Sequence record: PV841871.1
Reading direction: 5' to 3' (one strand)
From: Escherichia phage Ivi
DNA: 44,890 bases
Under the pieces are notes generated by a model that was given only the letters and a program-made list of their open reading frames with translations, did not search any database and was not told where the DNA came from. Below, piece by piece: positions 43,526 to 43,554 of the stretch. The translations under genes and the position numbers were made by a program. The number at the start of each line of letters is the position of its first letter. Position 1 is the stretch's first letter.

Positions 43526-43554
43526 TTGCACACCCCAATATAATAGGATACTAT
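43526..43554 (+). promoter_or_regulatory. Class I promoter TTGCAC-N17-TACTAT
   Basis: Contains AATAG-GATA-CTATT; followed by RBS GAGGAG and ATG 43588. Confidence 0.5.

Follow-up and report, generated by a model that had tools for sequence, protein, structure and literature searches.

Genome Context and Class I Elements

The window, that is, the whole 44,890-nucleotide stretch of Escherichia phage Ivi DNA analysed here (PV841871.1), represents a complete or nearly complete Kagunavirus (Guernseyvirinae) genome of a virulent E. coli siphovirus. Its segment 43000-44890 is 97.6% identical to vB_EcoS_fFiEco03 over the aligned 63% of the segment, and the annotation of fFiEco03 was used for orientation. 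Many members of Kagunavirus and Jerseyvirus have been isolated with a view to therapy or biocontrol of E. coli and Salmonella, and the regulation of their transcription is essentially undescribed. Four promoter-like elements, designated class I, are present in the window:

69..98 (+): class I copy 1; -35 TTGCAC at 69-74, -10 TACTAT at 92-97, palindrome AATAGGCTACTATT at 85-98
10818..10847 (-): class I copy 2; -35 TTGCAC at 10847-10842, -10 TACTAT at 10824-10819, palindrome at 10818-10831
20012..20041 (-): class I copy 3; -35 TTGCGC at 20041-20036, -10 TACTAT at 20018-20013, palindrome at 20012-20025
43526..43555 (+): class I copy 4; -35 TTGCAC at 43526-43531, -10 TACTAT at 43549-43554, palindrome AATAGGATACTATT at 43542-43555

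Copy 1 is followed by a 39-aa ORF (ATG 129) and then a small-gene cluster, copy 2 by a 173-aa DnaN-like gene (10791-10270, minus strand, ATG 10791), copy 3 by an Imm-like gene (ATG 19971; Pfam Imm_superinfect, E 9e-14) and the metallophosphoesterase operon, and copy 4 by an ORF at ATG 43588 and then small accessory genes without an assigned role. When TTGCRC-N17-TACTAT was searched with at most one mismatch, four matches were obtained in the window against 0.5 expected, and none of 100 shuffles reached four.

The first-pass annotation had described these elements as near-identical copies of TTGCAC-N17-TACTAT at 69-97 (+), 10819-10847 (-), 20013-20041 (-), and 43526-43554 (+), lying 25-40 nt upstream of start codons and carrying the palindrome AATAG-N4-CTATT over the -10 block. 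All four were located at these positions, and the palindrome is present on each of them. The hexamer formula holds for copies 1, 2, and 4, but the -35 of copy 3 is TTGCGC. Likewise, near-identity applies to copies 2, 3, and 4 (mutually 30-31/33) but not to copy 1, which has only the hexamers and the palindrome in common with the others and, because its spacer differs, matches copy 4 at only 25/33 positions. A GGAG-type ribosome-binding site precedes every ATG, although the distance from the -10 ranges from 27 to 41 nt rather than from 25 to 40.

With regard to the genes behind copies 2 and 4, two minor observations were made. The function of the DnaN-like gene (10270-10791, minus strand, 173 aa) is uncertain from its sequence matches: the Pfam beta-clamp central domain is sub-threshold (E 0.006), and the PHROGs match is to a RusA-like resolvase family (E 4e-36), with a weaker match to a processivity-factor family. 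This gene is encoded in 11 IMG/VR loci only (10 distinct contigs). The 143-aa ORF at 43588-44019 (+) matches three small PHROG families end to end (residues 1-61, 69-124, and 125-142). At this place fFiEco03 has separate small genes, and the ORF may have arisen by fusion or be several small genes miscalled as one.

Probable Host-Type Promoters

In each class I element, TACTAT occupies positions 8-13 of the palindrome, and the operator would span roughly -19 to -6. No RNA polymerase domain was found in the ten largest ORFs of the window, and the annotations of fFiEco03, Jersey, phiEap-2, VLCpiS11a, and AH01 list no such enzyme; transcription is thus expected to depend on the host enzyme. From the hexamers and their spacing, we infer that the four elements are active host sigma70 promoters. 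Their assignment as sigma70-type promoters aimed at the named genes, proposed in the first-pass annotation, is borne out by the orthologues, which keep TTG and TAnnnT around a fully altered spacer. The class I hexamers match the sigma70 consensus at 7/12 positions, so these promoters could be weak or need help.

The same motif has been reported before. In the sister Kagunavirus fBC-Eco01 (PMC9825357, Suppl. Table S2), it occupies the same genomic positions and is given as seven PHIRE-derived sites, listed as 'phage RNAP promoters' with the consensus tgAATAGTa-ccTATTat-T. Such published annotations credit the motif to a polymerase that these phages lack. Promoters of a T7/SP6-like phage enzyme were rejected here, since no polymerase gene was found among the ten largest ORFs or in the annotated relatives and the genes concerned lie on both strands; moreover, the PHIRE listing mixes orientations, and the motif in it is the palindrome within sigma70-type promoters. 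It is therefore extremely improbable that a phage-encoded RNA polymerase recognizes these sites.

The forward orientation of class I is the better supported one in sequence terms, for three reasons. The N4 of class I keeps TA at palindrome positions 8-9 in every copy, which completes TACTAT, whereas the N4 of the class II sites described below is free. The Jersey counterpart of class I is TTGACA-N18-TACTAT, with a consensus -35 and the same layout, and the Jersey record annotates a promoter there. In addition, the Jersey promoter of the Cro-like gene is TTGC[A/G][C/T]-N17-TACTAT. Over about 20 bp, class I is similar to class II when read as its reverse complement, which accounts for PHIRE having lumped the two classes in the fBC-Eco01 table.

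Two other readings of these elements were discarded. One took as the true -10 a perfect TATAAT within the spacers of copies 2 and 4, but no -35 lies at a usable distance from it, and the hexamer is CATAAT in copy 3 and many orthologues. An RNA hairpin role for the palindrome is contradicted by its location upstream of the predicted transcription start and by a stem of only 5 bp.

The Palindrome beyond the Four Elements

The 14-bp palindrome AATAG-N4-CTATT occurs in seven exact copies in the window, against 0.02 expected, and no other inverted repeat of the 5-N(0-8)-5 type is as strongly over-represented across the window. The proposal of a four-copy class was right in that all four class I elements are exact, but the class is not closed: the set comprises seven exact copies and one with a single mismatch. 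The additional sites, together with the Cro-like gene and two further promoters with one-mismatch palindromes, are as follows:

39798..39827 (-): class II promoter TTGACA-N18-TATAGT; palindrome 39803-39816 in the spacer; divergent from the Cro-like gene
36881..36909 (-): class II promoter TTGACA-N17-TATAGT; palindrome 36886-36899 inside the spacer
33263..33291 (-): class II promoter TTGACG-N17-TATAGT; palindrome 33268-33281 inside the spacer
39848..39861 (+): promoter of the Cro-like gene; one-mismatch palindrome AATATGGTACTATT; -10 TACTAT at 39855-39860; without a -35
39892..40107 (+): gene of a 71-aa HTH_3 Cro-like protein, the proposed operator-binding repressor; single domain, Pfam HTH_3 E 2.3e-12
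3776..3808 (+): promoter TTGACT-N17-TATATT (3780-3808) before the terminase and head genes; one-mismatch palindrome ACTAGTTGACTATT over the -35
10909..10942 (+): promoter TTGACT-N17-TAAGCT (10914-10942) with TG before the -10; one-mismatch palindrome AATAGTTGACTTTT over the -35; divergent from class I copy 2

The class II promoters head a 170-aa gene and nuclease operon (39827-39798), the DUF2815 (Gp2.5-like SSB) and DNA polymerase genes (36909-36881), and a methylase and SNF2-helicase operon (33291-33263). They are the three best sigma70 matches within 30-44.9 kb (10-11/12 positions). Their layout differs from that of class I in that palindrome and -10 overlap by a single T, the last of the former and the first of the latter, which would place the operator at about -25 to -12, and their N4 is free (CGAA, TTAG, and TTCG here, and many others among relatives). 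The weaker fifth copy that had been noticed before the Cro-like gene does exist, at 39848-39861, with one mismatch and without a -35. This single mismatch creates a TGn extended -10 (TG at 39852-39853); in 37 Kagunavirus loci the TG is kept and n is G, A, or C. The one-mismatch palindrome at 3776 is a possible weak operator.

The placement of the sites also bears on the sign of regulation. A protein bound at the palindrome might activate or time transcription instead of repressing it, particularly at weak class I promoters with 7/12 hexamers, and the one-mismatch palindromes of the two plus-strand promoters are centred near -33, where some activators act. On the other hand, the class I site covers the -10 hexamer itself, and at class II, where the promoters already match at 10-11/12 positions, the site fills the spacer, both of which are typical of steric repression; the spacers are 17-18 bp and not the 19-20 bp of MerR-type promoters. 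Activation is thus considered unlikely.

A separate feature was observed downstream of the class II promoter at 36909-36881. The 5' UTR of the DUF2815 (Gp2.5-like SSB) gene (36835-36880, minus strand) contains the hairpin CUGGCCGGGCAGUUCCCGG, which is nearly unchanged in Jersey and has related variants in phiEap-2 and AH01, and which may be a translational or autoregulatory operator.

Conservation across Related Phages

Loci of relatives were fetched through neighbouring genes and not through the motif. An exact palindrome lies upstream in 44 of the 72 loci retrieved with the metallophosphoesterase. In 22 distinct orthologues of copy 3, TTGC, an AT flank with AATA of the left arm, TA at palindrome positions 8-9, and TATT of the right arm are all invariant; TTGC and TACTAT/TAGTAT are kept, and the spacer changes from ACCCCAATAT to ATATCATAAT, ACCTACAAAT, or AACTCAAAAT. 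In some relatives, both the spacer and the first gene downstream of the copy-3 promoter are replaced outright, so that the promoter-operator unit appears to be a conserved cassette before changeable accessory genes.

Among 220 distinct sites in Guernseyvirinae-like contigs, 208 overlap a TTGnnn-N16-18-TAnnnT promoter, and in these the first base of the -10 falls at palindrome position 8 (91 sites), 11 (32), or 14 (85) and at no other. Changes in spacer length arise by indels between the -35 and the palindrome, and the register between palindrome and -10 is kept.

The sites can be divided into a G-type (AATAG...CTATT), a C-type (AATAC...GTATT), and hybrids with one arm of each. Exact sites are distributed as follows:

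The window and fFiEco03: 7 G-type each
Salmonella phage Jersey: 4 G-type
Serratia phage Tsm2: 2 G-type
Enterobacter phage phiEap-2: 1 G-type, 3 hybrid
Hafnia phage TS33: 1 hybrid, plus ATTAC variants
Pantoea phage AH01: 5 C-type, 2 hybrid, 0 G-type
Klebsiella phage VLCpiS11a: no exact site; sole near-site GATACTATAGTATT over the -10 of the Cro-like gene promoter

It appears from these comparisons that the palindrome has the properties of a protein operator, with conserved arms that shift jointly and an N4 that is free outside the -10 (in class I, it varies only outside TACTAT). The joint change of both arms from G to C in AH01 is what binding by a protein dimer predicts, and it speaks against a palindrome that arises from overlapping -10 elements as well as against one conserved host factor.

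The symmetry might alternatively reflect two-way promoters, in which part of the palindrome and the invariant upstream AT are due to an opposite -10, TATTAT, with no dedicated binder. Read in reverse, copies 2, 3, and 4 give TTAAGT, TTGGTG, and TTTAGA, respectively, followed by N16-TATTAT (8-9/12 to consensus); no other good promoter was found in the 110-bp gap ahead of the tail genes (20150); and the Jersey orthologue of copy 3 has TATTAT as its forward -10. Nevertheless, class II sites keep both arms without any reverse -10, and the reverse -35 is lost in close relatives with a different gene after the copy-3 promoter. Since the reverse -35 is unconserved in close relatives, the reverse orientation is not supported as the main promoter, and two-way firing is kept only as a minor rival. 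As a substitute for an operator it is improbable, given also the symmetric change in AH01, which points to dimer recognition; it could nonetheless be true alongside the operator.

Some further repeats were noticed in the relatives. In some of them, an extra exact palindrome AATAGGTTACTATT (L126, 10750-10763) lies just before the terminator preceding copy 1, about 158 bp upstream of the copy 1 operator and with no recognisable -35; the equivalent in the window (44817-44830) is degenerate, AATAGTTTGGGATT. In lineages without the AATAS palindrome (VLCpiS11a/L124 and L253-L266), a word TTGGTTGCAA / GCAACCAAC recurs at or beside the -35 regions of promoters as well as in 5' UTRs. The sequence ATATGA-N6-TCATAT is present twice in VLCpiS11a, in one case directly adjoining a TATAGT -10. 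These words may belong to another regulatory code within a shared genome architecture.

Candidate Binding Proteins

Two HTH proteins are encoded in the window, the 71-aa HTH_3 protein listed above and a 60-aa AlpA/excisionase-like protein:

42931..43110 (-): gene of the 60-aa HTH_17 protein (AlpA/excisionase-like), the rival and disfavoured binder; Pfam HTH_17 E 1.6e-8

Both had been put forward as candidates in the first-pass annotation. The Cro-like protein is favoured by its distribution, as homologues with 35-48% identity are present in 7/7 lineages examined, and by the palindrome over its own -10. Its gene is monocistronic, with a terminator-like hairpin at 40096-40116, and the best solved-structure match of its product is the Cro protein of phage 434 (71 aa; E 2.2e-6, query residues 6-68). 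The promoter of the Cro-like gene was read in Kagunavirus, Jersey, phiEap-2, the AH01 lineage, and VLCpiS11a, and in 5/5 of these lineages a palindrome with zero to two mismatches lies over the -10. A site kept over the gene's own -10 is a signature of autoregulation.

The HTH_17 protein is found in only 2/7 lineages, Kagunavirus and Jersey. Its assignment to a DNA-binding HTH family, its 80% identity between these two lineages, both of which have the exact AATAG operator, and the location of its gene about 415 bp from copy 4, which lies upstream of it, would be compatible with a role at the palindrome. However, no homologue was found by tblastn in phiEap-2, AH01, TS33, or Tsm2, all four of which keep the palindrome set, and the candidate promoter nearest to its gene, that of the primase operon (43170-43142, TTGCTT-N17-TATACT), is without the palindrome. 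HTH_17-family proteins also usually bind as monomers or to direct repeats. The protein is also absent from VLCpiS11a, a lineage with only one near-site. It seems quite improbable, then, that the HTH_17 protein is the binder. MerR-type activation through it was rejected as well, since the spacers are 17 bp (class I) and 17-18 bp (class II) instead of 19-20 bp and the phyletic pattern is contrary.

A host transcription factor conserved in Enterobacterales could also bind the operator, with the promoters and operator otherwise as described here. All hosts belong to this one order, and the AATAG form is common to Kagunavirus, Jersey, and Serratia phages, the Cro-like proteins of which are only 42-48% identical. 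Against such a factor, the half-site varies by lineage (AATAC in AH01, ATTAC variants in TS33, mixed in phiEap-2), and the site over the -10 of the Cro-like gene itself is kept in the five lineages read. We know of no E. coli regulator with the consensus AATAG-N4-CTATT, and a host factor is regarded as an unlikely binder.

The Cro-like protein can also be compared with its proposed site at the level of residues. The opening S-Q of the recognition helix, in which Q corresponds to Q28 of the 434 protein, is invariant in four aligned lineages. The residue aligned to Q32 of 434 Cro is N or T in the G-type lineages (Kagunavirus, Serratia, and Jersey), G in the C-type Pantoea lineage, and S in the mixed phiEap-2 and Hafnia lineages. 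This residue thus seems to track the inner base of the operator, a correspondence across seven lineages in one alignment column that is suggestive only. Speaking against the Cro-like protein as the binder, the recognition helices of Kagunavirus (SQGAINQ) and Jersey (SQSLITH) differ at several positions although the two lineages have the same operator. An IMG/VR scan aimed at extending the comparison to further AH01-type proteins yielded no contig besides the known one.

Proposed Mechanism

Considering the above, the elements are probably promoters of the host RNA polymerase into which an operator for the Cro-like protein is built, and this protein would repress them. The same palindrome is found in the four class I elements, in three near-consensus promoters of replication genes, and in the promoter of the Cro-like gene. 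The idea of one co-regulated class is therefore retained in part: a single shared regulator is the most economical reading, but there is no separate class I regulon, and the early timing put forward with it is presumptive. As to which protein binds, in which sense it acts, and when, we infer the following scheme. The host sigma70 RNA polymerase would fire all eight promoters upon infection. The Cro-like protein would then accumulate from its own monocistronic unit, bind the palindromes as a dimer, and block access to the -10 and spacer, such that about eight transcription units, including the Cro-like gene itself, would be turned down together. Copies 2 and 3 are minus-strand units embedded in plus-strand structural operons, and their repression might in addition end head-on transcription against the late operons. 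The regulon would not cover all non-structural genes, because the primase operon lacks this operator.

A more far-reaching reading, which is offered tentatively, is that most non-structural transcription in this strictly virulent subfamily is governed by one 434-Cro-like protein that has no cI partner and whose half-site CTATT resembles a -10. This resemblance would explain why the operator occurs in three registers 3 bp apart (-10 at position 8, 11, or 14), why its orientation is flipped between genera at orthologous promoters, and why firing in both directions is possible. As part of the same tentative reading, specificity may have drifted with one residue of the recognition helix (N/T with AATAG, G with AATAC). 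If it were true, these phages would provide a natural series for the co-evolution of operator, promoter, and repressor, and the lineage-specific operator variants offer a simple swap test of target choice by an HTH protein.

The resulting map would have one operator shared by eight host-type promoters, with the Cro-like protein as the likely master repressor. If correct, it would help in predicting timing classes, in phage engineering (promoter cassettes and controllable expression of payloads), and in fixing annotation pipelines.

Comparison with Known Systems

Like 434 Cro, the Cro-like protein is a small single-domain HTH_3 protein, also of 71 aa. Operators of 434 Cro are likewise 14 bp with conserved outer arms, and the palindrome described here shares this organization, with a free centre; its sequence differs (AATAG-N4-CTATT, compared with ACAA-N6-TTGT of 434). 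As in the lambdoid Cro/OR-OL system, operators are located over the -10 or spacer of promoters presumed to be early, and also on the regulator's own promoter, and several early operons are proposed to be turned down by one protein. Unlike that system, the present one lacks a cI partner, an integrase, and a lysogeny module, and eight dispersed single operators take the place of two tripartite clusters. No integrase is annotated in the relatives fFiEco03 and Jersey. The divergent acidic 170-aa protein has no HTH or Pfam match and belongs to a PHROG of unknown function, with no sign of a cI-type repressor. The concept amounts to classical Cro/operator logic in a lytic phage and would be unsurprising to a specialist.

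In phi29, the DNA-binding proteins p4/p6 act at A2b/A2c and change the transcription programme at several early promoters. By analogy, one phage protein would act at several early promoters of a lytic phage here; the protein family and the site architecture differ, and phi29 p4 also activates a late promoter.

The repeat itself is already tabulated for fBC-Eco01, and what is new is the interpretation. The fBC-Eco01 listing gives a repeated word only, credited to phage RNA polymerase and with mixed orientations, and that report draws no link to sigma70 hexamers, palindromic symmetry, or the Cro-like protein. Seven PHIRE promoters have also been reported for VB_EcoS-Golestan (PMC7203180), again with no link to sigma70 hexamers, palindromic symmetry, or the Cro-like protein. 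A full-text literature search for the motif string gave no relevant match. The more unusual aspects of the present system are the three fixed registers, the opposite orientation that an orthologous promoter shows in different genera, and the switch of the half-site from lineage to lineage.

The only time-course RNA-seq study of a Kagunavirus (PMC12645636) covers 5-120 min at the gene level and is coarse. One HTH gene, which could be either of the two, is among its four 'early' genes, and the Imm and DNA polymerase genes are classified as 'late', which does not obviously fit early shut-off, although these classes are not decisive.

Other Features near the Class I Elements

Between copy 2 and the promoter at 10914, GGAATA occurs three times in the segment 10850-10912, which also has a perfect palindrome of 16 bp, AACTATTCGAATAGTT; in this palindrome the half-site words of the operator stand in reversed order. 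GGAATAA repeats of a similar kind are found in phiEap-2 near 11830-11900.

The promoter at 10914-10942 belongs to a duplicated non-coding transcription unit, present at 10914-11165 (+) and 43218-43480 (+) with 76% identity. Each unit has the promoter TTGACT-N17-TAAGCT with TG before the -10, about 200-230 nt without a listed plus-strand ORF of at least 50 aa, and a terminator-like hairpin at its end. One unit precedes the late spanin, scaffold, and capsid genes, and the other ends just before copy 4. An Rfam scan of the window, duplicated units included, gave no family at the gathering threshold. The RNA of 43253-43480 has a predicted fold of -85.1 kcal/mol (z = -3.8), and an alignment of 16 paralogues and orthologues reveals compensatory pairs (e.g., CG 8 / UA 5 / AU 3), with an apical hairpin in which the sequence changes and the pairing is kept. 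The duplicated unit is a candidate phage small RNA or structured leader.
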